Origin: an uncultured Dehalococcoidia bacterium
Lineage (GTDB): Bacteria; Chloroflexota; Dehalococcoidia; Tepidiformales; Tepidiformaceae
NCBI GenBank assembly: GCA_938015525.1
Contig: CALLPC010000025.1
Location: 28,340-92,339, forward strand
DNA: 64,000 bases
Direction of reading: 5' to 3'
The notes under the pieces are model-generated. The model was not told the origin of the DNA. It did not search any database and worked only from the letters and a program-made list of their open reading frames with translations. The position numbers were made by a program, and so were the translations under genes. This document shows, one piece after another, positions 7,949 through 25,045 of the stretch. Numbering within the stretch: position 1 is the first letter of the stretch; every line of letters begins with the position of its first letter.

Positions 7949-8659
7949 GTGACCGACTCCCTCGCGGCGGCGCTCTCCGCACTCGACGCTGCCCCCCGCC
8001 CGTACGCCCGCCGCTTCGACAGCCCCGAGCCGCTCGCCGGCCCCGTCGCCTTCCTCCCTTCCGCCTTCAACCCGCCCACCCTGGCGCATCTCCGCCTCCT
8101 CCACCGCGCAGCCGAGGCTGCCAGCGCCCACCCCGCCGCCCTCCTCACCACCCGCAACGTCGACAAGGACGTCACCGGTGCACCGCTCGCCGCCCGCCTC
8201 GAAATGCTCCTCGCTGCCCGCCGCGACGGCCACGAGGTCGCTGTCCTCGCCGCCAACGCCGCCCGCATCATCGACCAGGTCGCGGCCCTCGAAACCGCCT
8301 TCCCCGCTGCCGACCCCACGCCTGTCGTCGGCTTCGATACCCTCGTCCGGCTCTTCGACCCCCGCTACTACACCCACATGGCCGCCGAGCTCGACCCCTT
8401 CTTCGAACGCCGCCGCATCATCGCCGCCAACCGCGGCCCGCACGCCCTCGAGGCCGTCGCCGAGTGGCTCCACGCCAACGCCCGCGACTACGCCGACCGC
8501 GTCATCCTCGTCGAACTCGACCCCCAGTCAGCCGCCATCTCCTCCACCCGCGCCCGGGAACTCGCCGCCGCCGGCGTCCTCCCCGACGTCGTCCCCCCAT
8601 CCGTCCGCGCTATCCTTGCCCAGCGCCGCTACTACGCCCCGGGCCCCGGGCTCACGTAA
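7949..8659 (+). CDS. NadD-like nucleotidyltransferase (cytidylyltransferase superfamily) with degenerate HxGH motif
   Basis: FLPSAFNPPTLAH sits at the (T/H)xGH position, and a C-terminal ISSTRAR matches the ISSTxxR motif of NadD/NMNAT enzymes. Confidence 0.6.
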   Translation: MTDSLAAALSALDAAPRPYARRFDSPEPLAGPVAFLPSAFNPPTLAHLRLLHRAAEAASAHPAALLTTRNVDKDVTGAPLAARLEMLLAARRDGHEVAVLAANAARIIDQVAALETAFPAADPTPVVGFDTLVRLFDPRYYTHMAAELDPFFERRRIIAANRGPHALEAVAEWLHANARDYADRVILVELDPQSAAISSTRARELAAAGVLPDVVPPSVRAILAQRRYYAPGPGLT

Positions 8660-9905
8660 TCTCGCTGATATCGAGCACGCTCTCCAGCGCCAGCACCCCC
8701 TGCGCCGCCAGGGCGCGGACCTCCTCCTCGCCCAGCCCCAGCCAGCTCCCCAGCACCGCCATCGTGTCCCCGCCCAGGTCCGGCGGCGGCCCCGTGATGC
8801 CCGTCTCACTCCTCGACATCCGCACCGGCGTGTTCGCGATCGGGATCGTCCCCGCCACCGGGTGCGTCACCTCCCGGATCATCCCCCGCGCCCGTACCTG
8901 CGGGTCCGCCACTACCTCCCGCACCGTATTCACCGGCCCCGCCGGGATGCCCACCGCCAGCAGCTCCTCCAGCCATTCCGCCGTCGTCCGCCGCCGGAAC
9001 GCCGCCGCAAGCAGTGGCTCCAGCTCGGCGTGGTTCCTCGTCCGCTTCGGACCCGTCGCGAACCGCTCATCGTCGATGAGCTCCGGCACCCCGAGAATCG
9101 CGCACAGCAGATTCCACTGGTTCTCTTCCCCGAACCCCAGCGCAATCACGACCCAGCCGTCCGCCGTCTCGAACGCCTGGAACGGTGTAGCGCTCGGGTG
9201 CCGCGTCCCCAGCGGCCCCGGCACCTCCCCCGTCACGAAGTACCGCATGATGGCGTTCTCCATCACCGTCACCTGGCAGTCCAGCATGCTGATATCGATC
9301 GCCTGCCCCAGCCCGCTCCGCTCCCGCTCCCGCAACGCGGCCAGGATGCCGATGACGGCGAACATCCCGGCGACCACATCTCCATACGACACCCCCGGCC
9401 GGACCGGCGGGCCGCCCGGCTCGCCCGTAATCGAGAGCACCCCGCCCATCGCCTGCACCACGATGTCGAGCGCCGCCCGGTCACGATACGGCCCCGTCTG
9501 CCCGAAGCCGCTGATGCTCGCGAGGATGACCCCCGGGTTCCGTGCCGATAGCACCGGGTAGTCGATTCCCAGCCTCTCCAGCGTCCCCGGCGTAAAATTC
9601 TCCATCACCACGTCGGCCTGCTCGACCAGCCGCAGGAACAGCTCCCGCCCCTCCGGCCGCCTCAGGTCGATCGCAAGGCTCCGCTTTCCCCGGTTCACCG
9701 AGAAGAAATACCCGCTCCAGCCATTCTGGTACGGGCCCGTCGTCCGCGAGATGTCCCCATAGGGCGGCCGCTCCACCTTCACCACCTCCGCCCCAAGGTC
9801 GCACAGGATCATCGAGCCGAACGGCCCCGCCAGCACCCACGTCAGGTCCAGCACGCGCACACCCTCGAGCGGCCGGCCAGTCATCCTCCCGCGTTCAGAA
9901 TCCAT
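8652..9905 (-). CDS. CoA-transferase family III (CaiB/BaiF-type)
   Basis: PLEGVRVLDLTWVLAGPFGSMILCDLGAEVVKVERP is the canonical N-terminal signature. It overlaps the convergent upstream gene tail-to-tail by 8 nt. Confidence 0.9.
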   Translation of the reverse strand: MDSERGRMTGRPLEGVRVLDLTWVLAGPFGSMILCDLGAEVVKVERPPYGDISRTTGPYQNGWSGYFFSVNRGKRSLAIDLRRPEGRELFLRLVEQADVVMENFTPGTLERLGIDYPVLSARNPGVILASISGFGQTGPYRDRAALDIVVQAMGGVLSITGEPGGPPVRPGVSYGDVVAGMFAVIGILAALRERERSGLGQAIDISMLDCQVTVMENAIMRYFVTGEVPGPLGTRHPSATPFQAFETADGWVVIALGFGEENQWNLLCAILGVPELIDDERFATGPKRTRNHAELEPLLAAAFRRRTTAEWLEELLAVGIPAGPVNTVREVVADPQVRARGMIREVTHPVAGTIPIANTPVRMSRSETGITGPPPDLGGDTMAVLGSWLGLGEEEVRALAAQGVLALESVLDISEIT

Positions 9906-9989
9906 AGCCCCAGATTCTGCCCCGCCGCGGCCTCACCGTCGAAACTCCTCGGGTGAACCCTCATCCGCACCCCCACCGTGAGACCGCCG

Positions 9990-11330
9990 CTACGCCGCCC
10001 TCTTCACCACCTCGTCCGCGCGTTTCACCACCGTCAGCACGTACTCCCGCGTCGCCGTCACCGGGTCTTTCGTCCGCCACTGATGCGCCTCCGTAATCAC
10101 CGTCAGCGTCCCCGCAAACCGCATCCAGAACAGCAGGTACCGGTACGCCGGCATGAACGGCACCACCCACCAACCCCGCCACAGCCGCCGCGCGCTTGGG
10201 TGAACGACCAGCAGCGCGCTCGTCGTCCACGTCGCCGCCTCGATGACGAAATACGCCAGGTACAGCGCCACCCCCGCACCGAGCACCGTCGCCCACGAGT
10301 ACCCGAAGAACACCAGCCCCGGCATCAGGAACGTCCACGCCACCCGCGGAAACGCCAGCGTATGGTCCACCAGCAGCGTCCGCACCGGCGCGAACCCCTT
10401 GTAGAACAGCCCCCGCCGCGCCAGCGTCGGATGCGCCGCGATGACCTCCACCTCCCCCCGCTGCCATCGCACCCGCTGCGCATACAGCGCCCGCAAACTC
10501 GGAATCGGCTCCGTATAACACACCGAGCTCGGCACCACCCCCACCTTCTTCCCCGGGAACCGCTCCTGGATCTCGAAGGTCATGAATGTGTCCTCGCCCA
10601 CCGTGCTCGCGTCATACAGGTGCGTCGAAAGTAGCGCCTCCCGCCGGAATGCACTGAACGCACCCGCCAGCGTGAACAGCCGCCGCGACATCGTTTCGAA
10701 CCGCCGCCCGACATTGAACGCGAAGTAGTACTCCTGGAACTCGCACTCGTGCAGCAGCCGCATCCAGCCCCGGTCACCGCTCTCCGGCCGGATCTCCACC
10801 GCTCCCGTCGCCGCCACCAGGTCCTCGTCGTGCTCGAACGCCGCCACCATGTTCGCCACCGCGTCCTCGTGCAGCACCACGTCCGAGTCCACGTTGATGA
10901 TGTACTCCCCCCGCGCGTGGTGAATCCCGACGTTCAGCGCCCACGTCTTCCCCTGGTGAAACGTCGAAAGCCAGTGCATCTGCCCCGGCCACTCCACCTG
11001 CTGCTCCGCGCAGAACACCCGGTACGAGCCGTCCCGGCTCCCGTTGTCGATCGCCAGCACCTCGATCAGCTCGTGCGGGTAGCTCTGCCGCCGGACAGAT
11101 TCCAGGCACGCCCCCAGCGACTGCTCGCTGTTGTACACCGGCACGATCACCGTCACCCGCGGCCACTTCCCCCGCGGCGCCTCCGTCACCGGCCGAATCG
11201 GCAGCCGCTTAGCCCTGCCCAGGACCGTCGCGACCAGGTAGTTGAACGCCTGGTACCCGTCCACCAGGATGGGCACGAACAGCCACACCCCCCAAAACCC
11301 GAGCGCAGGCAGCCACCAGTCCGTCGACAT
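9990..11330 (-). CDS. processive family-2 glycosyltransferase (PgaC/IcaA/cellulose-synthase-like), exosortase-cassette associated
   Basis: VTVIVPVYNSE, DNGSRDGS, a DxD motif (NVDSDV) and QRVRW (QxxRW) are present, with N- and C-terminal TM segments. The ORF was trimmed to the MSTDWW ATG at 11330, 1 nt after the stop of the upstream gene. Confidence 0.85.
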   Translation of the reverse strand: MSTDWWLPALGFWGVWLFVPILVDGYQAFNYLVATVLGRAKRLPIRPVTEAPRGKWPRVTVIVPVYNSEQSLGACLESVRRQSYPHELIEVLAIDNGSRDGSYRVFCAEQQVEWPGQMHWLSTFHQGKTWALNVGIHHARGEYIINVDSDVVLHEDAVANMVAAFEHDEDLVAATGAVEIRPESGDRGWMRLLHECEFQEYYFAFNVGRRFETMSRRLFTLAGAFSAFRREALLSTHLYDASTVGEDTFMTFEIQERFPGKKVGVVPSSVCYTEPIPSLRALYAQRVRWQRGEVEVIAAHPTLARRGLFYKGFAPVRTLLVDHTLAFPRVAWTFLMPGLVFFGYSWATVLGAGVALYLAYFVIEAATWTTSALLVVHPSARRLWRGWWVVPFMPAYRYLLFWMRFAGTLTVITEAHQWRTKDPVTATREYVLTVVKRADEVVKRAA

Positions 11331-11331
11331 C

Positions 11332-11940
11332 TCAGCCCTCCCGCAGCCGCGCGTAGACCACGCGCAGCGTTGGCCGCGTGATCGCCAGCCAGTAAATCCC
11401 AATCGCCAGTCCGAAGAACACCGCCCGCCCGAACACCACGTGCGCGATGTCCAGCCACCCCTGGCCCCCATACGCCACCGCCCCCACGATCACCAGCATC
11501 CGCACCACATTCGCCAGGAACGTCAGCCCCACGGCTCCCAGCAATACCAGCAGCCGCTTCCCTTTCGGCAGGGCCGGGTAGAACACCACCAGCCCCATCA
11601 AAGCCGCCACCTCCAGCAGCCCCGAGCACTCGATCCCGATGCTCAGCCGCGTCCACTCCGCGTGGTGCGGCACGCCGACCACCAGCAGCTCGCCCGCCCG
11701 GTCATCGAACAGCTCCGTCCGGATGCCCAGCAGCCACGAGACCGCGTGCACCGCATGCGCCGTCGCCACCCGCACCCACAGCTCGCCCGGGACCAGCTCC
11801 CGGGCTGCCACCACGACCAGCACCGCCCCGCCGGCCGCCCCGAGGAGGAAGTACGGCAGCCACGCCCCCGCCCTCCAGAAAAACCGCACCGCGAGCGCCC
11901 ACGCAACCGCAGCCGGCACGAACCACGCGAGCGTCGTCAT
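11332..11940 (-). CDS. exosortase/archaeosortase-family transmembrane transpeptidase, short XrtG-like form (~202 aa)
   Basis: About six predicted TM segments. Family catalytic motifs are present: IGIECSGL (Cys), ANVVRM (Arg) and DIAHVVFG (His). Its ATG at 11940 overlaps the stop of the upstream gene (ATGA). Confidence 0.8.
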
Positions 11941-19024: not shown

Positions 19025-19603
19025 CTACGTCACCACCAGGGGAACGCCCTCCCGACAGAGTCGGCACGCCGATGGGTCCCACGAGGCCGCCGGCACGTCC
19101 AGGCAGGCGAAGAACGGCGCTCCGAACCCCACCGTCCCCCCCGTCCGGTCGACCAGCACCCCCACGCCGGCCACCGCCGCCCCCCGCGCCTCCACCGCCC
19201 GCAGCACTTCCCGGATGCTCCCGCCGGTCGTGAGCACATCATCCACCACCAGGACGCGGTCTTCCGGCCCCAGCTCGAACCCCCGCCGGAACTCCCGCTC
19301 CTCTCGCCCCTCCTCCTTCCGCTCGGCGATGATCGCTCGCAGCCCCAGCTGCCGCGCCGTCTCGTACGCCAGGATGACCCCGCCCGTCGTCGGCCCGGCC
19401 ACCACCGTCGCCATGCCCCGGAACCGGTCGGCGATCTGCCGGCAAAGCGGCTCCGTCACGTCCGGCCATTGCAGAATCCGGAACTTCTCGATGTACAGCT
19501 CCCCGTGACGGCCGCTCGCGTACTGGAAGTGCCCGCGGAGCAGCGCCCCGCGTCCCTCGAGCAGCGCCCACGCCTCCTCCCGCGTCAGGTGCCGTGCAGA
19601 CAT
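19025..19603 (-). CDS. pyrE: orotate phosphoribosyltransferase
   Basis: The PRPP-binding motif VLVVDDVLTTGGS and an overall PyrE-like sequence (192 aa). Confidence 0.9.
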   Translation of the reverse strand: MSARHLTREEAWALLEGRGALLRGHFQYASGRHGELYIEKFRILQWPDVTEPLCRQIADRFRGMATVVAGPTTGGVILAYETARQLGLRAIIAERKEEGREEREFRRGFELGPEDRVLVVDDVLTTGGSIREVLRAVEARGAAVAGVGVLVDRTGGTVGFGAPFFACLDVPAASWDPSACRLCREGVPLVVT

Positions 19604-19661: not shown

Positions 19662-22600
19662 CTACTCTTCGCCGAGCCGCTTCGCCGTCAGGACCGGCTT
19701 CTGCTCCGTCAGCACTCCCTTCTCGTTCGGAGCCAGCCCGAACCGGCTCAGCGGCAGGTAGCTCAGGGTCGCCTTCCCGATGATGAGGTCCTTCGAGACC
19801 AGGCCCACCTGCGCGCTCCGGCTGTCCAGGCTGTTGTTCCGGTTGTCCCCCATCACGAAATACTCGTCCGGCGGGATGACGACCTTCGGGAGCGTGTCGT
19901 TCCACGGCGTCCGGATGTACGGCTCTTCCAGCAGCCGGTCATTGATGTACACCTTGCCGTTCACGATTTCGATCGTCTCCCCAGGGAGCCCGATGACCCG
20001 CTTGATCAGGTCGGTGCTCGGGTCACGCGGGTCCCGGAGCACCACGATGTCCCCCCGCTCCGGCCCGTGGAACACGTACCGCGTCGGGTCATCCCCCGGG
20101 TCGATGAACGGCAGGAACGTCGACAGCTTCTGCAGGTCGACCTCCGAGTACACCAGCTTGTTCACGATGAGGAACTGCCCGTTCTCCAGCGTCGGGTACA
20201 TCGAGTTGCCGTCGACTTTGAAGTTCCCGAAGCTCGCCCGCACCGAAAGGAAGACCAGCGCGGCCAGCATGACCGTCTCCACTACTTCCCGGACCCAAGC
20301 TTTCAGCCGCCCGTCATCCCGCGAACGTGCGGCCGCGGGTTCCGCCGCTTCCTCCCGGCCCGTCGCCCAGGGCGGCGCCGCAGCCAGCGAGTCGAACTCG
20401 AACCCGATCGGCGCATTCCGCTGCTCGAACTCCGCGGACACCTCCTCCGCCGGGGCCCATCCGTCATCCGCCGGCCTGCCGCGCTGCGGCGCCCACGCCG
20501 CCATCCGGATGAACGGCCGCTCTTCCGGCTCTGTTCCCGTCTCCTCGACGATCTGCGTGCCCTGCGCGCCGAACAGCATCTCGAGCGCTGCCGCGGTTTC
20601 AGCGTCGGCCTCCGCCGATGCCGTCTCGGGCTCCGGCATCGAAGCATGCGCCTCGAACGCCCTCAGGATGACGTCGCCTTCGTCCTCGGTCGAGACGAAC
20701 TCCGGCTCATCCCCGTCGGTCACCGGGGACGGCCGCGCCCAGGCCGGCTCATCGCCCGCGGCGCCCATCTGGGCCTCGAGGCTCGCCGCGAGGTCGAGCT
20801 CGTCCTCTCCCATCACCGACACGCCGAGCTCCGCCGTCTCGGCGATGTCGCCCCACATGTCGTCATCGTCGGCTGCGTCCAGCACCTCGAAGCCGTCGGG
20901 CGCGGCCGCCTCCGTTCCCCCGGTGCCCCGGGCGAATGTCGCCCCGGCAGGGTCCTCCTCGTCCTCAGCCTCCCACCACGGCCGCGGCTCCCGGGCAGCC
21001 GCCTGCTCCGTTGCCGGCGCGACATCGGCGCTCGCGACCGCCTCCCCGGCGGGGTCCTCCTCGTCCTCAGCCTCCCACCACGGCCGCGGCTCCCGGGCGG
21101 CCGCCTGCTCCCCTGCCGGCGCGACATCGGCGCTCATGACCGCCTCCCCGGCGGGGTCCTCCTCGTCCTCAGCCTCCCACCGCGGCCGCGGCGCATCGCT
21201 CTCGGGCTCCGCCCCGAGGCTCCCGGGCCCGACGCTGCCGGAGTCGTGGTCCCCCCACAGCGCAGCCTGGACTGCCGCTCCGAATTCCGCCTGGCTCAGC
21301 GGCACCGGTTCCGGGGCCCAGGCTTCGCCCGCCTCGACCGTTGCCCCCGGCCGGGGCGGCTCGCCGGGGTCCGTCCGCCCGATACCGCCGCTCTCCGCCA
21401 GCCAGCTGCCCGCTTCGACCGACACCGGTTCTGGGTCCCATTCCTCCGCCAGGACTTCGTCGCCGACCGGCACTCCATCCCCCTCGGCGAACGGGCCATG
21501 CACCGCCGCGACGACCTCCGGGGCCCAGCCATCCTCGCCGTCGGCGGCCTCGGCGGCAGGTCCCTCCCGCGAGATTCCCCACCATCCGGTCGTACCGGCC
21601 GCTGGCTCGCTGCCGCTCCTTTGCTCCATCTGCCACGCGAGTGACTGGACCTGGGCAGCGAAGTCGCTCACCGCCTCCAGGTCGCTGGCGAGCGACTCGC
21701 CCATGCTGCTGCCCCATCCCTCCGGCGTCGACCCCGGCGGTTCATCGGCGACCAGTCGGCCTCCTTCGAAGACGCTCGGTCCCCGCTCAGGTTCGAAGCC
21801 GCCGGTGGCCTCCTGCTCCTCCGGCCCCACCTGCCATCCCGCCAGCCACGGCGTGCCGGATTCCCGTCGTTCAGCGGGCTCCTCGCGCCGCTTTCGCCCG
21901 AACAGCCGCCCAAAGAGGCCGCGCTTTTCATCCCCCGGTTCAGCCCGGCCCGGCACCTCCCGCACCGGGAACAGCCCGGCCAGCGGGTCGTCGTACTCAG
22001 CCGAATGCCCGGCGGGCCCGTCCTGCCCGGGCCCGGCGAACGCCGCCAATCCTGCCCCCTCGACGCCCCCAGACCGCTCGTCGTCATGAACTCCCTCGCG
22101 CTCCCCGGGCCCCGGCCTGTCGAGCATGGCGAACCGGGACGCTCCCCCGTCATCCCGCCATCTCGCCGCGAAAACGGCCGCCTCGCCGGCCTCGGAAACG
22201 CTCGGCTCCCTTGCCGCTTCACCATCTCCCGCGCGATGCAGGCCCGCCCCCGCACGAAACTCCTCGCCCGTGCCCGGGGGCTCGAGCGGCCCGGCCCCCG
22301 CCGACCCCGGGGCATCCGCATCGCGCCAGGGGTCCTCCGCGGCCTCACTCCGGTCGCCTGCCTCCGCACCGGCGCCGGGTCGGGCCGCCGCGTCTGCCTC
22401 CCATCCGGCTGCCGAACCCCCCGCCGGCTCCTGCTCCTCCGTCTGAGGCTCGAGCTCCCAGTCGAACGGCTTCAGGAACTCCTCAGGAACCTGGCTCAAG
22501 TCCCGAACATCCTCGCCGAGCGGTTTCTTTTTCGCCCACTCGCGCATCGCCGCGAGCCCTTCAGAAACCCCGGCCCCTTCGTCGCCTTCCTCGCCCCGGT

Positions 22601-23567
22601 CGAGCCCGAAAAACGCATCCCACCTGCTGCTCTTGCCCGGCCCCCGGTCGGCGGCCCGGTCATCTTCCGGCCGCCGGCGGAGGAGCGGCAGTCCCGCAGC
22701 CGGGCGCTCCTCCATCGCGGCGAGCCCCTCCTCGACCGTCGCGCCTCGCTCGTCCTCCCCGCCCGGGGTTGCAGCCGCGCCGTCCGCCCCGGGCTCCGAC
22801 GCAACGCCGGGGCCCCCTGCCTCGGCCTCGAACCCGCCTGCGCCGCTGCTCCCATGCCCCTCCGGCTGCTCGTCTTCCCGCCCCTCTTCGCTGCCCCCGC
22901 CCAAACGCTGCCGGCCGGCACCGTGGCCGCGCTCCGCCCACGCCCGCATCTGCGACACGATGCTCCCGTCTTCGCCCGGGTCCTCGCCGGCCTCCTGCCC
23001 ATCATCCGGCCCCGGCCACGCGCCCGGCCCGAAATCCCAGTTCAGCCGCGACCCCTCCACCGCCTCTCGCCGCGGCCGCAACCGCAGCGGCGGCGGTTCG
23101 ATCATCCCCGCGGGCCCCGGGCTGGTACCCGTCGGCTCGCCCGGCGTTGATGCCCCGCGCGGCTTCAGCCGCAGCGGCTCCGACACGAAGCCGGGGTCCA
23201 GCCGCTCCGTCGACCAATCACCTTCGTCATCGCTGTCCGCAAGCTCGCCTGGCCACCCCCGGAACGCCCGCTGCTGCGGCGAAGAATGCCGCCGCTCCTC
23301 CTCGCCTTCCCGCCTTTTCCTCCCGAGGCCAAAAAGCCCGCGCTTCTTCGGCACATCCGGTGCCGGCCGGTTCAACACCCAGGGGTCGCGCCCCGTGCGG
23401 TCTGCCGGCTCCTGCTCCCTGCTCCGGAGGCGTTCACGGAGCAGTCTGTTCTTCTCCTCCTGCCGCTTCCACGCATCGCTCGGCAGGTCGAAATACCAGT
23501 CCTGCGGGTCCTGCTGACCGGTTTCCAGTTCGTCGAGGGGCCGCCCCTCGCCATTGTCCATCGTCAT
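19662..23567 (-). CDS. lepB: signal peptidase I (LepB) with ~1090-aa acidic low-complexity N-terminal extension
   Basis: The C-terminal ~209 aa (about nt 19665-20291) hold a TM helix (VMLAALVFLSV), GNSMYPTL (catalytic Ser), IKRVIGLPGE (catalytic Lys) and GDNRNNSLDSR (box E). The same frame stays open upstream to the ATG at 23567, which has TATGGT 6 nt upstream. The extent of the true N-terminus is unverified. Confidence 0.65.
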   Translation of the reverse strand: MTMDNGEGRPLDELETGQQDPQDWYFDLPSDAWKRQEEKNRLLRERLRSREQEPADRTGRDPWVLNRPAPDVPKKRGLFGLGRKRREGEEERRHSSPQQRAFRGWPGELADSDDEGDWSTERLDPGFVSEPLRLKPRGASTPGEPTGTSPGPAGMIEPPPLRLRPRREAVEGSRLNWDFGPGAWPGPDDGQEAGEDPGEDGSIVSQMRAWAERGHGAGRQRLGGGSEEGREDEQPEGHGSSGAGGFEAEAGGPGVASEPGADGAAATPGGEDERGATVEEGLAAMEERPAAGLPLLRRRPEDDRAADRGPGKSSRWDAFFGLDRGEEGDEGAGVSEGLAAMREWAKKKPLGEDVRDLSQVPEEFLKPFDWELEPQTEEQEPAGGSAAGWEADAAARPGAGAEAGDRSEAAEDPWRDADAPGSAGAGPLEPPGTGEEFRAGAGLHRAGDGEAAREPSVSEAGEAAVFAARWRDDGGASRFAMLDRPGPGEREGVHDDERSGGVEGAGLAAFAGPGQDGPAGHSAEYDDPLAGLFPVREVPGRAEPGDEKRGLFGRLFGRKRREEPAERRESGTPWLAGWQVGPEEQEATGGFEPERGPSVFEGGRLVADEPPGSTPEGWGSSMGESLASDLEAVSDFAAQVQSLAWQMEQRSGSEPAAGTTGWWGISREGPAAEAADGEDGWAPEVVAAVHGPFAEGDGVPVGDEVLAEEWDPEPVSVEAGSWLAESGGIGRTDPGEPPRPGATVEAGEAWAPEPVPLSQAEFGAAVQAALWGDHDSGSVGPGSLGAEPESDAPRPRWEAEDEEDPAGEAVMSADVAPAGEQAAAREPRPWWEAEDEEDPAGEAVASADVAPATEQAAAREPRPWWEAEDEEDPAGATFARGTGGTEAAAPDGFEVLDAADDDDMWGDIAETAELGVSVMGEDELDLAASLEAQMGAAGDEPAWARPSPVTDGDEPEFVSTEDEGDVILRAFEAHASMPEPETASAEADAETAAALEMLFGAQGTQIVEETGTEPEERPFIRMAAWAPQRGRPADDGWAPAEEVSAEFEQRNAPIGFEFDSLAAAPPWATGREEAAEPAAARSRDDGRLKAWVREVVETVMLAALVFLSVRASFGNFKVDGNSMYPTLENGQFLIVNKLVYSEVDLQKLSTFLPFIDPGDDPTRYVFHGPERGDIVVLRDPRDPSTDLIKRVIGLPGETIEIVNGKVYINDRLLEEPYIRTPWNDTLPKVVIPPDEYFVMGDNRNNSLDSRSAQVGLVSKDLIIGKATLSYLPLSRFGLAPNEKGVLTEQKPVLTAKRLGEE
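20951..21190. repeat. tandem repeat, 102-nt unit, ~2.35 copies, in frame within lepB (34-aa protein repeat)
   Basis: Copies start at 20951, 21053 and 21155, and only a few mismatches are visible by eye. They encode RP(R/W)WEAEDEEDPAGEAV(M/A)SADVAPA(G/T)EQAAAREP. Confidence 0.9.
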
Positions 23568-23573
23568 CAGCGT

Positions 23574-23579
23574 ACCATA
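23574..23579 (-). promoter_or_regulatory. -10-like hexamer TATGGT, 6 nt upstream of the lepB ATG (leaderless-type)
   Basis: The reverse complement of accata (23574-23579) is TATGGT. It is followed by acgctg and then ATG (23567-23565). Confidence 0.4.
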
Positions 23580-23634
23580 GCCTCCCCGCTGTTCCGGGCA
23601 GCTCCTCCGCGTCGCCCTTTACAGCCGATTGACC

Positions 23635-23640
23635 TACCCT
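23635..23640 (+). promoter_or_regulatory. -10-like hexamer TACCCT, 8 nt upstream of the ECF sigma ATG (leaderless-type)
   Basis: TACCCT-cggcccac-ATG(23649). The same TACCCT hexamer recurs before the starts at 25847 and 42434. Confidence 0.35.
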
Positions 23641-23648
23641 CGGCCCAC

Positions 23649-24266
23649 ATGCCCGATATGCTCGAACCCCCGGACGAGCACCTGGTCTCTCTTTCAAAGG
23701 ACGGCAATCTCGACGCCTTCAACAGCCTCGTCGACCGTTACCAGTCGCTCGTGTTCACCCTCTGCTACCGCCAGCTCGGCGAGCGAACCGCCGCCGAAGA
23801 CGCCGCCCAGGAGACCTTCCTCTCCGCCTATCGCGCGCTCCCCCAGTTCCAGGGCGGCAGCTTCCGCAGCTGGCTCCTCCGCATCGCCCTCAACCATTGC
23901 CGCGACGAACTCCGCCGCCGCCTGCGCCGGGTCCCCACCCGCCCTTTCGACACCGGCCGCCCCGATGACGTCGCCATCGAACCGCAGGACCCCGCTGCCG
24001 ACCCTGCCGCCGCGTTTGAAGCCCGCGCCCTCGGCCCGGCACTCGAACGGGCACTCGCCGGGCTCCCGCCGGACCAGCGCGAGGTCATCCTGCTCGCCGA
24101 CGTCCATGGCCTCCAGTACGAGGAAATCGCCGCCGCTACCGGCGTCTCTCTCGGCACGGTCAAATCCCGCCTCTCCCGCGGCCGCGACCGTCTCCGCCGC
24201 ATCCTCGCTCGCCACCCGGAACTTTTCCCCCGCTCCGGACGTCTCCCCGACGGAGGGGACCGATGA
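23649..24266 (+). CDS. RNA polymerase ECF-type sigma-70 factor
   Basis: Region 2 (FNSLVDRYQSLVFTLCYRQLG...AEDAAQETFLSAYRAL) and region 4 (QREVILLADVHGLQYEEIAAATGVSLGTVKSRLSRGR). The ORF was trimmed to the ATG at 23649. Confidence 0.9.
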   Translation: MPDMLEPPDEHLVSLSKDGNLDAFNSLVDRYQSLVFTLCYRQLGERTAAEDAAQETFLSAYRALPQFQGGSFRSWLLRIALNHCRDELRRRLRRVPTRPFDTGRPDDVAIEPQDPAADPAAAFEARALGPALERALAGLPPDQREVILLADVHGLQYEEIAAATGVSLGTVKSRLSRGRDRLRRILARHPELFPRSGRLPDGGDR

Positions 24267-25042
24267 CCGACAGGCTTTTCCGCCGCCACCGCGCCTGGCA
24301 TGCCCTCATCACCGACGCCGTCAGCGGCCGCGCCGATGAGGCGAGCCGCCAGCGCCTCGACGCGCACGTCGCGCGCTGCGACGCCTGCCGCACCCGCCTC
24401 GAAGACGAGCGCCGACTCCGGGCCGCGCTCCAGTCCCTCCCACTCCGCGAACCCTCCCGCTCCCTCCGGCTGACTGCGGCCATGCTCGAACACCCCCGCG
24501 CCGCGCCCTCCCGCCGGGCTGCCCCGGGCCCGGTCCTCCTCCTCGCAGCGCGCGGCATCGCTGCCGCAGCCGTCGCCGCCTTCGCCGTCGTCGCGCTCCT
24601 CGCGCTCGCCTCGCCCGCCGATGACGGCGGCTCAGTCTCGCTCGCCTCCCGCGAGCAGGCCGAGGATACCGTGGCACCGATGGCCGCCCCGTCCGAGGGC
24701 GAGAGCGCAGACCACGCCGCGCCCCTGGCGCCCTTCGCCGCTACGCCCGGGGCCCCGCCGGGCCTCGCGTCCCCGCCAGCCGGCGGGGGCGCCCCCAACT
24801 CCGACCGTTCTCCTGACGCGGGCGGGCCCTCCGGCGATACGGCGGCCGACCACGGTGAGGACCGGGTCGCGGACGGGAGCAAGCCCGGCGAAGCGGCCGA
24901 GAACGCTCAACCCGCCGCCGCGCGCAGCGGTGGGCCTGCCGAAGGGAGCCGCGTCCCGTCCTGGCTCCTGCTCGCCACGGGAGCAGCAGCCGCCGCCGCC
25001 CTGGCCGCCCTCGCCGGCCTCGAAATCGCCCGGAGAAAATGA
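24263..25042 (+). CDS. anti-sigma factor (zf-HC2) with two TM segments and a Pro/Ala/Gly/Asp-rich extracytoplasmic region
   Basis: HVARCDACR carries the Hx3Cx2C motif. Its ATG overlaps the sigma gene stop (ATGA). There is a central TM and a C-terminal TM ending in ARRK. Confidence 0.8.
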   Translation: MTDRLFRRHRAWHALITDAVSGRADEASRQRLDAHVARCDACRTRLEDERRLRAALQSLPLREPSRSLRLTAAMLEHPRAAPSRRAAPGPVLLLAARGIAAAAVAAFAVVALLALASPADDGGSVSLASREQAEDTVAPMAAPSEGESADHAAPLAPFAATPGAPPGLASPPAGGGAPNSDRSPDAGGPSGDTAADHGEDRVADGSKPGEAAENAQPAAARSGGPAEGSRVPSWLLLATGAAAAAALAALAGLEIARRK

Positions 25043-25045
25043 TCG

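Follow-up and report, generated by a model that had tools for sequence, protein, structure and literature searches.

A type I signal peptidase with a giant acidic, tryptophan-rich and predicted cytoplasmic N-terminal region in Tepidiforma-type Chloroflexota

Introduction

Type I signal peptidase (SPase I) is an essential, intensively studied enzyme and an antibiotic target, and is seen as a pared-down protease anchored in the membrane, without any part to play in the cytoplasm. The single-anchor enzymes of the Gram-positive type (Bacillus subtilis SipS and SipT, Staphylococcus aureus SpsB (4wvg) and the chain 4nv4) have a comparatively short N-terminal cytoplasmic tail. Here we describe a gene for a much larger SPase I, the giant peptidase, at 19662..23567 on the minus strand of a 64,000-nucleotide stretch of DNA from an uncultured Dehalococcoidia bacterium (contig CALLPC010000025.1; the whole stretch is called the window below). 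Its product shares the S26 fold signature with the Gram-positive-type enzymes and with the catalytic domain of E. coli LepB (1b12, 1t7d). It resembles these enzymes in the boxes SMxPT, KR(V/I)IG and GDNRxxSxDSR and in having one transmembrane (TM) helix directly before the catalytic domain, but its tail is 1,085 residues long, and 599 to 1787 residues long family-wide.

The A-domains of FtsY and of Toc159, like the scaffold region of RNase E, may be regarded as analogues of the tail, though not as homologues. The A-domain of FtsY, the signal recognition particle receptor, is N-terminal, acidic and variable in length, has no solved structure and is dispensable for core activity (PMC8082313). 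Both regions are acidic, variable N-termini on a membrane-associated export component, and the short basic amphipathic membrane-targeting sequences of FtsY have putative counterparts in the giant, but the giant's tail sits on a protease and not on a GTPase, is rich in Trp, has conserved motifs and tandem arrays, and has no sequence homology to the A-domain. The E. coli A-domain has about one-fifth the length of the giant's tail. The A-domain of Toc159/132/120 is very long, acidic, located on the cis side and fast-diverging, and its proposed role is the tuning of client specificity (PMC10267391). Toc159, however, belongs to a eukaryotic organelle, has GTPase and beta-barrel partner domains, and shows no homology to the giant peptidase. 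The traits typical of an A-domain, namely an N-terminal position, acidity, predicted disorder, fast divergence and attachment to a membrane-bound component, are found together in the extension, which has an identity of 0.28 compared with at least 59% for the S26 domain. The C-terminal scaffold of RNase E is a long, disordered and evolutionarily plastic region with an amphipathic membrane-binding segment and partner-recruiting microdomains; it lies at the opposite terminus, is basic and Arg-rich and has known partners, whereas the giant's tail is acidic and Trp-rich.

Type I SPases have also been tied to pairs of extracytoplasmic function (ECF) sigma and anti-sigma factors, as for RsiV with SipS/SipT and RsiP with SipP (PMC4183432, PMC8844934). 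The giant SPase likewise adjoins a sigma/anti-sigma pair, the tie being one of gene neighborhood, but the Bacillus SPases are ordinary and short, and the anti-sigma factor here lacks a conserved cleavage site. Searches of the literature for a Tepidiforma signal peptidase, or for an SPase I with a long or disordered cytoplasmic extension, returned nothing relevant. An earlier sequence-only reading of this DNA had known of no characterized SPase I with such an extension; none was found in the literature, and no family model covers the extension. Below we present the evidence that the extension is translated and conserved, and weigh what it may do. The proposal to which we give an even chance is that the peptidase is standard in other respects and that its disordered tail acts as a multivalent scaffold tethered to the membrane.

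Results

The protein ends in a complete type I signal peptidase

The gene and its catalytic part comprise the following features.

19662..23567, minus strand: giant signal peptidase I gene, 1301 residues plus stop (open reading frame (ORF) listing, codon-position GC pattern, orthologues)
19758..20288, minus strand: Peptidase S26 catalytic domain, residues 1094-1270 (Pfam and NCBIfam above cut-offs; aligned to 4nv4, 1t7d, 1b12 and 4wvg)
20229..20285, minus strand: single TM anchor, residues 1095-1113, VVETVMLAALVFLSVRASF (hydropathy, AlphaFold2 helix, conservation)

The ATG at 23567 is the start of the ORF, and the GC1/GC2/GC3 pattern is coding-like over its entire length. A database protein (P0001) that bears the plain name 'signal peptidase I' is 100% identical to the giant peptidase, and more than 25 full-length orthologues were found. 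A complete type I SPase occupies the final ~216 of the 1301 residues, matching Pfam Peptidase_S26 (PF10502; residues 1094-1270, E 2.8e-45, 154.7 bits versus a cut-off of 22.9) and NCBIfam TIGR02227 sigpep_I_bact (141.3 bits versus a cut-off of 47). The S26 matches and the orthologues bear out the sequence-only reading, which had proposed a fusion of a type I signal peptidase with a long N-terminal region that is translated and of low complexity. As assigned by the boxes, the catalytic dyad is Ser1122 (SMYPT, nt 20202-20204) and Lys1189 (KRVIG, nt 20001-20003), and box E of the S26 domain reads GDNRNNSLDSR. The sequences SMYPTL, KRVIGLPGE and GDNRNNSLDSR align to the same boxes in solved SPases (4nv4, 1t7d); S1122, K1189 and GDNRNNSLDSR are invariant across orthologues, and AlphaFold2 modeled the domain with a predicted local distance difference test score (pLDDT) of 70-88. 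We class the product of 19662..23567 as a bona fide type I signal peptidase of MEROPS family S26A, with catalysis predicted from family membership.

Kyte-Doolittle 19-residue windows above 1.6 are confined, in the whole protein, to residues 1095-1113. An AlphaFold2 helix at residues 1085-1113 spans this anchor, and the pattern RE..ET..LA.L.FL.VRA in the anchor region is invariant among orthologues. The predicted topology of the single anchor is N-in/C-out, with an outward catalytic domain. Because the protein has no N-terminal signal peptide and a single TM helix, and because the SPase domain must face outward, the extension would be cytoplasmic.

The N-terminal extension is translated

Since the DNA is ~72% GC and strongly skewed, it yields long shadow ORFs, and ORF length alone is no proof of translation. 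The shadow ORF that the sequence-only reading had placed at 19780-22089 on the plus strand is indeed present, and shadow ORFs of 680-769 residues are listed in the window. Each 4-kb bin of the window (1-64000, ~70-73% GC) has a plus strand GC skew, (G-C)/(G+C), of -0.22 to -0.32. The skew is uniform and extends over genes on the plus strand, the sigma operon among them, and this strand asymmetry is the reason that long stop-free shadow frames are common.

The evidence for translation comes from relatives. A protein search returned 27 homologues of 815-1927 residues with an S26 domain, from Tepidiforma, 'Candidatus Amarobacter' and unnamed Dehalococcoidia metagenome-assembled genomes (MAGs), and nearly all of them begin MTMDNGEGRPLDE...WYFDLPxxAWxRQEEKNRxLRxR. 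In a comparison with two close orthologues, the ratio of nonsynonymous to synonymous substitution rates (dN/dS) was 0.40-0.50 for the extension, 0.21-0.43 in its conserved blocks and 0.57-0.72 in its variable stretches, compared with 0.06-0.10 for the S26 domain. There were ~37 indel events per pair, every one of which preserved the frame. Trp, the metabolically costliest residue, is the best-conserved residue class in the extension (column identity 0.61 versus 0.28 overall). The sequence-only reading had noted that initiation near the TM helix (~20300) would speak against the extension, but no internal start is conserved there; M1023 is Leu in close relatives, and no usable start was found after the internal GGGAGG. 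Taken together, the conserved start, the in-frame indels, the dN/dS below 1 and the invariant residues argue decisively that the extension is translated, and we are practically certain that the protein with its giant N-terminal region is real. An untranslated shadow ORF was rejected as an explanation on this comparative evidence.

Interrupted copies and a sub-lineage with two genes

Thirty-seven related loci have enough downstream DNA to be assessed. A single ORF runs from WYFDLP to GDNRxxSxDSR in 26 of them, which together with the dN/dS of 0.40-0.50 answers the question, raised by the sequence-only reading, of whether relatives keep the extension in frame and under purifying selection. The frame is interrupted in the other 11, and seven of these interruptions are of the assembly type. 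T. thermophila (L001, PDJQ01000001.1, ~10700-10900) has one frameshift and KatS3mg064 (L002/L006, ~10680-11030) two compensating frameshifts within the repeat array described below, and in both the ERPWWE... units go on in the new frame. Runs of N interrupt T. flava (L007, CP115149, ~10300-10400) and L050, and several MAGs, whose contig names suggest long-read assemblies, show multiple shifts. Because of such frameshift and N interruptions, database entries such as P0006, P0020 and P0029, among others, lack the S26 domain, and because the array breaks assemblies, N-terminal parts have been annotated as 'hypothetical' or 'TPR repeat' proteins. As the frameshifts of T. thermophila and of KatS3mg064 (P0020, P0006) lie inside the array, the idea that the extension forms a protein of its own there was rejected. 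Short-read MAG contigs often end within the array, and P0012 ('Candidatus Amarobacter') has an out-of-frame stretch (PSTTSPKLPSRPSPLSMRSWKS...) within an otherwise intact protein.

In the other four interrupted loci the frame ends at one homologous position, directly behind a DPWAxFL motif.

Split loci: L054 8001-11363; L057 8001-10535; L059 2484-5863; L065 309-4100

In L054, L057 and L059 an in-frame stop is followed, 30-50 nt downstream, by the ribosome-binding site and start codon of a second gene, and in L065 the S26-bearing frame resumes in another reading frame. Gene A encodes the distal two-thirds of the tail, and gene B the membrane-proximal module and the peptidase. At least seven independent protein clusters share the C-termini of the split gene A products, either ...F.FSSDRxxRRAG (P0068, P0070, P0078 and P0086, with P0074 as a variant) or ...xWSE (P0076, P0089). 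The two-gene version in this sub-lineage is genuine, and the fusion described in the sequence-only reading is therefore not obligatory. The existence of the split lineage indicates that the tail is a functional entity separable from catalysis.

These observations bear on the possibility of an annotation artefact, in which the extension is untranslated and the true start lies just before the TM helix, or two genes have been joined by error. Long stop-free frames are common, as the plus strand shadow ORFs of 680-769 residues illustrate, three database proteins (P0006, P0020, P0029) end without an S26 domain, and 11 of 37 loci are interrupted. However, these interruptions are frameshifts or runs of N in arrays whose repeats continue in the new frame, or, in four cases, a homologous true split. 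In addition, 87 clusters share a conserved N-terminal protein sequence, the indels keep the frame while dN/dS stays below 1, and no internal start is conserved. We consider an artefact hardly credible.

The family is confined to Tepidiforma-type Chloroflexota

When 185,579 species genomes were scanned for the N-terminal block, 60 loci were identified, all of them in Tepidiforma-type Chloroflexota genomes or bins, some of which are mislabeled. Only 87 clusters emerged when 1.84 billion representative proteins were searched exhaustively with a profile; the block lies at residues 1 to ~100 in every cluster but one weak match (P0103, E 7e-5), and the S26 boxes are present in all 29 new representatives of at least 870 residues. 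Across the family the extension is 18-31% D+E, 5-10% K+R and 1.9-4.8% W. A full-length search for other proteins that share the Trp motifs gave orthologues or their fragments only.

Composition and conserved motifs of the extension

The extension (residues 1-1085) has a pI of 4.2, a net charge of -141 and no Cys, and six residues (A, E, G, P, D and R) make up 69% of it. The sequence-only reading had counted 36 Trp in the extension. This is the number ahead of the TM helix, while 35 (3.2%) fall within residues 1-1085 and the full protein has 37. Its further impression that Trp favors acidic contexts did not hold, as the D+E fraction within three residues on either side of Trp is 0.233, compared with 0.221 for the extension, and thus shows no enrichment. 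No Pfam or NCBIfam family matched the extension at E <= 1, the only domain in the protein being of the S26 type, and no PDB chain matched it at E <= 1 with phmmer or at E <= 10 with a profile. The conserved elements are listed from the N-terminus.

23433..23507, minus strand: N-terminal signature block, residues 21-45, PQDWYFDLPSDAWKRQEEKNRLLRE (conservation, AlphaFold2)
23310..23351, minus strand: basic amphipathic motif 1, residues 73-86, PKKRGLFGLGRKRR (charge, hydrophobic moment, conservation)
22929..22961, minus strand: MRxWA motif copy 1, residues 203-213, IVSQMRAWAER (predicted short helix; W210 96% conserved)
22455..22628, minus strand: central motif cluster, residues 314-371, with SRWDAFF, EGLAAMREWAK (MRxWA copy 2) and EEFLKPFDWE
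21882..21989, minus strand: DPLAGLF motif (residues 527-533) and basic amphipathic motif 2 (residues 547-562, EKRGLFGRLFGRKRRE)
20942..21192, minus strand: tandem repeat array, 102-nt (34-residue) unit, 2.5 copies, each with RPWWEAEDEED (Tandem Repeats Finder, 95% match, no indels)
20481..20861, minus strand: membrane-proximal module, residues 903-1029, with DMWGDIAETAEL, DLAASLEAQ, DVILRAFEAHA, a helix at residues 984-1010 and FIRMAAWAPQR

The signature block contains 13 residues that are invariant among 23-27 orthologues (W24, F26, L28, P29, A32, W33, R35, Q36, E37, K39, R41, L43 and R44), and the AlphaFold2 helix at residues 32-52 (nt 23412-23474; pLDDT 87-89) is the sole confident element of residues 1-420. 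Motif 1 is kept as RGLFGFGRKK in orthologues, and its 9-mer hydrophobic moment lies at the 99.5th percentile. Its counterpart, motif 2, has a hydrophobic moment at the 98-99th percentile and includes the LFGRLFGR block (mean identity 0.77). The two RGLFG motifs (residues 73-86 and 547-562) are the only places in the extension where 15-residue windows reach a net charge of +5 or more. Of five gene A products examined from the split lineage, three have a related motif. The RGLFG duplication and the 34-residue tandem repeat had both been seen in the sequence-only reading and are confirmed. Most orthologues have 1-12 copies of MRxWA. In the central cluster M341, R342 and W344 are invariant, the blocks have identities of 0.72-0.83, short AlphaFold2 helices are found at residues 315-319 and 336-346, and dN/dS over residues 300-420 is 0.24-0.38. 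The membrane-proximal module has invariant D965, A970, F971, H974 and A975 and more than 90% conservation of W905 and W1025, with a dN/dS of 0.24-0.43; it was modeled as isolated helices with no globular fold. In the Tepidiforma/Amarobacter clade the order of motifs is constant from the N-terminal block to WAPQR. It runs through the N-terminal block, RGLFG-1, LxLRPR, MRxWA, SxWDxFF, MRxWA, FLKPFDWE and DPLAGxF in the first half, and RGLFG-2, WAPEP (two or three copies), the PWWE array, DMWG, DLAASLE, DVILxAFE and WAPQR in the second.

This pattern has to be set against the view that the tail is tolerated junk, a neutrally inflated low-complexity appendage harmless to the peptidase. Such a view accommodates the dN/dS of up to 0.7 in variable stretches, the many indels, the variation in length and repeat number, and the fact that catalysis needs none of the tail, ordinary SPases being without it. 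It is at odds with the retention of the tail in every one of ~60 species and 87 clusters, with invariant residues and blocks of dN/dS 0.2-0.4, and with the finding that Trp, the costliest residue, is the most conserved class. Furthermore, the part that was detached by fission has survived as a gene in its own right, and its C-terminus is conserved. We hold the junk reading to be very unlikely.

Predicted disorder and tandem arrays

AlphaFold2 was used to model 1200 residues with the family alignment. The pLDDT was below 50 for 880 of the 1200, and only isolated helices were obtained, which coincide with conserved blocks. In addition to the helix of the signature block, helices were predicted at residues 203-213, 315-319, 336-346 (LAAMREWAK), 630-650 and 759-771, and on the C-terminal side at residues 904-914 (DMWGDIAE), 926-935 (DLAASLEAQ), 966-975 (DVILRAFEAHA), 984-1010 and 1041-1050.

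The array position is a hot spot of variation, and several motifs are multi-copy. The number of PWWE units ranges from 0 to ~19 per orthologue, and residues 540-1075 of P0018 hold ~12 copies of a 126-nt (42-residue) unit with DWASAMRGWA. Other lineages have tandem arrays in the same relative place (L043 nt 10188-11335, L033 nt 9865-10967 and L032 nt 8230-8679), among them a 111-nt unit repeated 10 times (VVPWQVA/TPAWQAP), a 105-nt unit repeated 9.6 times (SFGWSKP/APHWAAP) and a 90-nt unit repeated 5 times. All array periods (126, 111, 105, 90 and 102 nt) are multiples of 3, and the units examined in detail carry Trp. Judged by these units, different lineages have independently expanded different Trp-bearing arrays. 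The spacing of aromatic residues is slightly more even than in shuffled sequences in 10 of 10 orthologues.

A role that is physical and needs no partner could be drawn from these properties, with the tail forming a polyanionic brush, or a condensate, on the inner face of the membrane that acts in nucleoid or ribosome exclusion, spacing, Trp/Arg sticker clustering or cation buffering. The extreme composition is kept despite fast sequence turnover, tail length ranges from ~600 to 1790 residues, the region is predicted to be disordered, the aromatics are evenly spaced, and the arrays expand and contract freely. Nevertheless, conservation at the level of single residues in all lineages (the N-terminal block with its 13 invariants, MREWA and DVILxAFExHA) exceeds what bulk properties would need, and the order of motifs is conserved as well. 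A partner-free role of this kind seems to us distinctly unlikely.

The divergent ECF sigma operon and other neighbors

The genes around the giant peptidase and the spacer upstream of it are as follows.

23568..23648, no strand assigned: intergenic spacer, 81 nt, shared with the divergent ECF sigma gene (two near-invariant blocks)
23649-24266, plus strand: ECF sigma factor (Pfam Sigma70_r2, Sigma70_r4_2 and Sigma70_ECF; NCBIfam)
24263-25042, plus strand: zf-HC2 anti-sigma factor (Pfam zf-HC2)
19025-19603, minus strand: PyrE-like phosphoribosyltransferase, directly downstream of the giant peptidase (TIGR01367 141 bits, just below the cut-off of 150)

All 58 related loci that extend far enough have the sigma gene directly upstream of the giant peptidase and divergent from it. 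At the loci with examined gene tables, the zf-HC2 anti-sigma gene and then SIMPL (DUF541) come next; in the window this operon lies at 23649-26000 (plus strand). The PyrE-like gene lies downstream in most related loci with enough DNA, followed by DinB_2 and a pterin-binding protein in the loci examined.

The spacer consists of block 1, GTCAATCGGCTGTAAAGGGCGAC, and block 2, GGGGAGGCTATGGTACNCTG, which stands directly before ATGACGATG; both are near-invariant across genera (upstream regions L001-L033) and are separated by a variable segment of ~22 nt. Block 2 places GGAGG 13 nt and the -10-like hexamer TATGGT 6 nt before the ATG. The sequence-only reading had described a TAnnnT-N6 start at 23567 and an 81-nt gap to the sigma gene, and the TATGGT-N6-ATG arrangement and the sigma start at 23649 agree with it. 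Block 2 also includes a conserved mini-ORF of three codons (ATGGTACNCTGA; ATG GTA CNC TGA), whose stop overlaps the main start as TGATG. RNAalifold found no compensatory pairs or covariation in the conserved spacer, and Rfam gave no match in the whole window. The GGAAC seen upstream of the peptidase in the window is not conserved, and neither is any recognizable ECF-type promoter.

Short SPase I paralogues

Tepidiforma and its relatives also have a second SPase I family of ~300-320 residues (P0187, at L066 6001-6969, P0172, P0184, P0188, P0198 and P0220). The paralogue P0187 ('signal peptidase I [Tepidiforma sp.]', 322 residues) comes from a different Tepidiforma MAG, and no second S26 gene is present within the 64-kb window. 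Its catalytic domain is 55-60% identical to that of the giant. The short paralogues have a Trp-bearing N-terminal extension of ~110-125 residues, RL(N/E)WPG ... DP.G.W ... RRWAPQH ... ALPGAFLFPEP, in which RRWAPQH resembles the membrane-proximal AAWAPQR of the giant (WAPQ(R/H)), but they lack the WYFDLP block and arrays and occur in another genomic context. At one related locus only (L043 13044-13931), a tandem short SPase I with an N-terminal region of ~100 residues lies directly downstream of the giant gene.

A possible link to the ECF sigma circuit

The ECF sigma/anti-sigma neighbors are possibly linked in function to the peptidase, and this forms the main rival to the scaffold proposal. 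In it the giant would be an ECF-sigma-linked specialist, either the site-1 protease of the adjacent anti-sigma factor or a sigma-regulated stress peptidase, with the tail as its connection to a cytoplasmic signal or to the complex of sigma and anti-sigma factor. The divergent sigma gene at 58/58 loci, the conserved operon content (sigma, zf-HC2 anti-sigma and SIMPL) and the shared intergenic region, near-invariant across genera, are all consistent with this, and the second, short SPase I of the genus could do the housekeeping. SPases have been documented as site-1 proteases (PMC4183432, PMC8844934), and in the window the first TM helix of the anti-sigma factor ends LALA|SP, that is, with ALA|SP at its end; a second hydrophobic segment is found at the C-terminus. 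However, orthologues of the anti-sigma factor show no conserved small-x-small or AXA-like SPase site behind this TM helix. The genes are divergent and so not co-transcribed, no recognizable ECF-type promoter is conserved upstream of the peptidase, and Pfam and PDB profile searches identified no anti-sigma-like domain in the tail. Moreover, synteny alone does not demonstrate interaction. We think that this specialist role is unlikely.

Discussion

In the scaffold proposal, the catalytic domain would cleave signal peptides at the outer membrane face, as any SPase I does, while the 1,085-residue tail would, from the topology, remain in the cytoplasm. The TM helix would hold this polyanionic tail at the membrane, and the two basic amphipathic RGLFG motifs, which are MinD/FtsY-like, probably add membrane contacts. 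The tail would display about ten conserved short linear motifs, mainly Trp-centered, together with short helices, several of them multi-copy and some in expandable arrays. These motifs may act as multivalent 'stickers' that tie the peptidase to cytoplasmic or membrane-peripheral partners, cluster the enzyme, or both, and the most plausible predicted partners are components or clients of the export machinery.

Several findings weigh against the scaffold. The role has been read from the grammar of the sequence, and the extension has no detectable homology to any characterized domain. The dN/dS of 0.6-0.7 in some stretches fits mere compositional constraint over much of the length, and the even-spacing signal is weak and comes from orthologues that are non-independent. 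With windows of 11-14 residues the hydrophobic moment of the RGLFG motifs lies between the 88th and 99th percentiles, and AlphaFold2 did not model these motifs as helices. Finally, the universal ECF sigma neighbor hints at a more specific regulatory role, of which the scaffold makes no use.

A bolder form of the same idea, which we regard as speculative and rather improbable, would make the tail a novel type of bacterial export organizer. Here basic signal peptides or components of the translocon would be caught by a polyanionic, membrane-tethered 'Trp-sticker' region, or this region would form a membrane-associated condensate, with its abundance or activity wired to the adjacent ECF sigma/anti-sigma envelope-stress circuit. 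Among prokaryotes it would then correspond to the Toc159 A-domain or to the 'acid chain' of Tom22.

On the practical side, repeat arrays such as these break or frameshift assemblies, and several database entries for this family are incomplete or mis-annotated. The fused and split versions of the gene, the independent repeat expansions and the cultured Tepidiforma carriers could make experiments possible, and the family offers a clean natural system for studying the evolution of multivalent short motifs in bacterial disordered regions. A whole lineage has kept a predicted cytoplasmic, disordered region of 600-1,800 residues on its SPase I over long evolutionary time. If this tail recruits partners or clients, the cleavage of signal peptides would have a physical link to what happens on the cytoplasmic side of the membrane, a link that is absent from current models of bacterial secretion.

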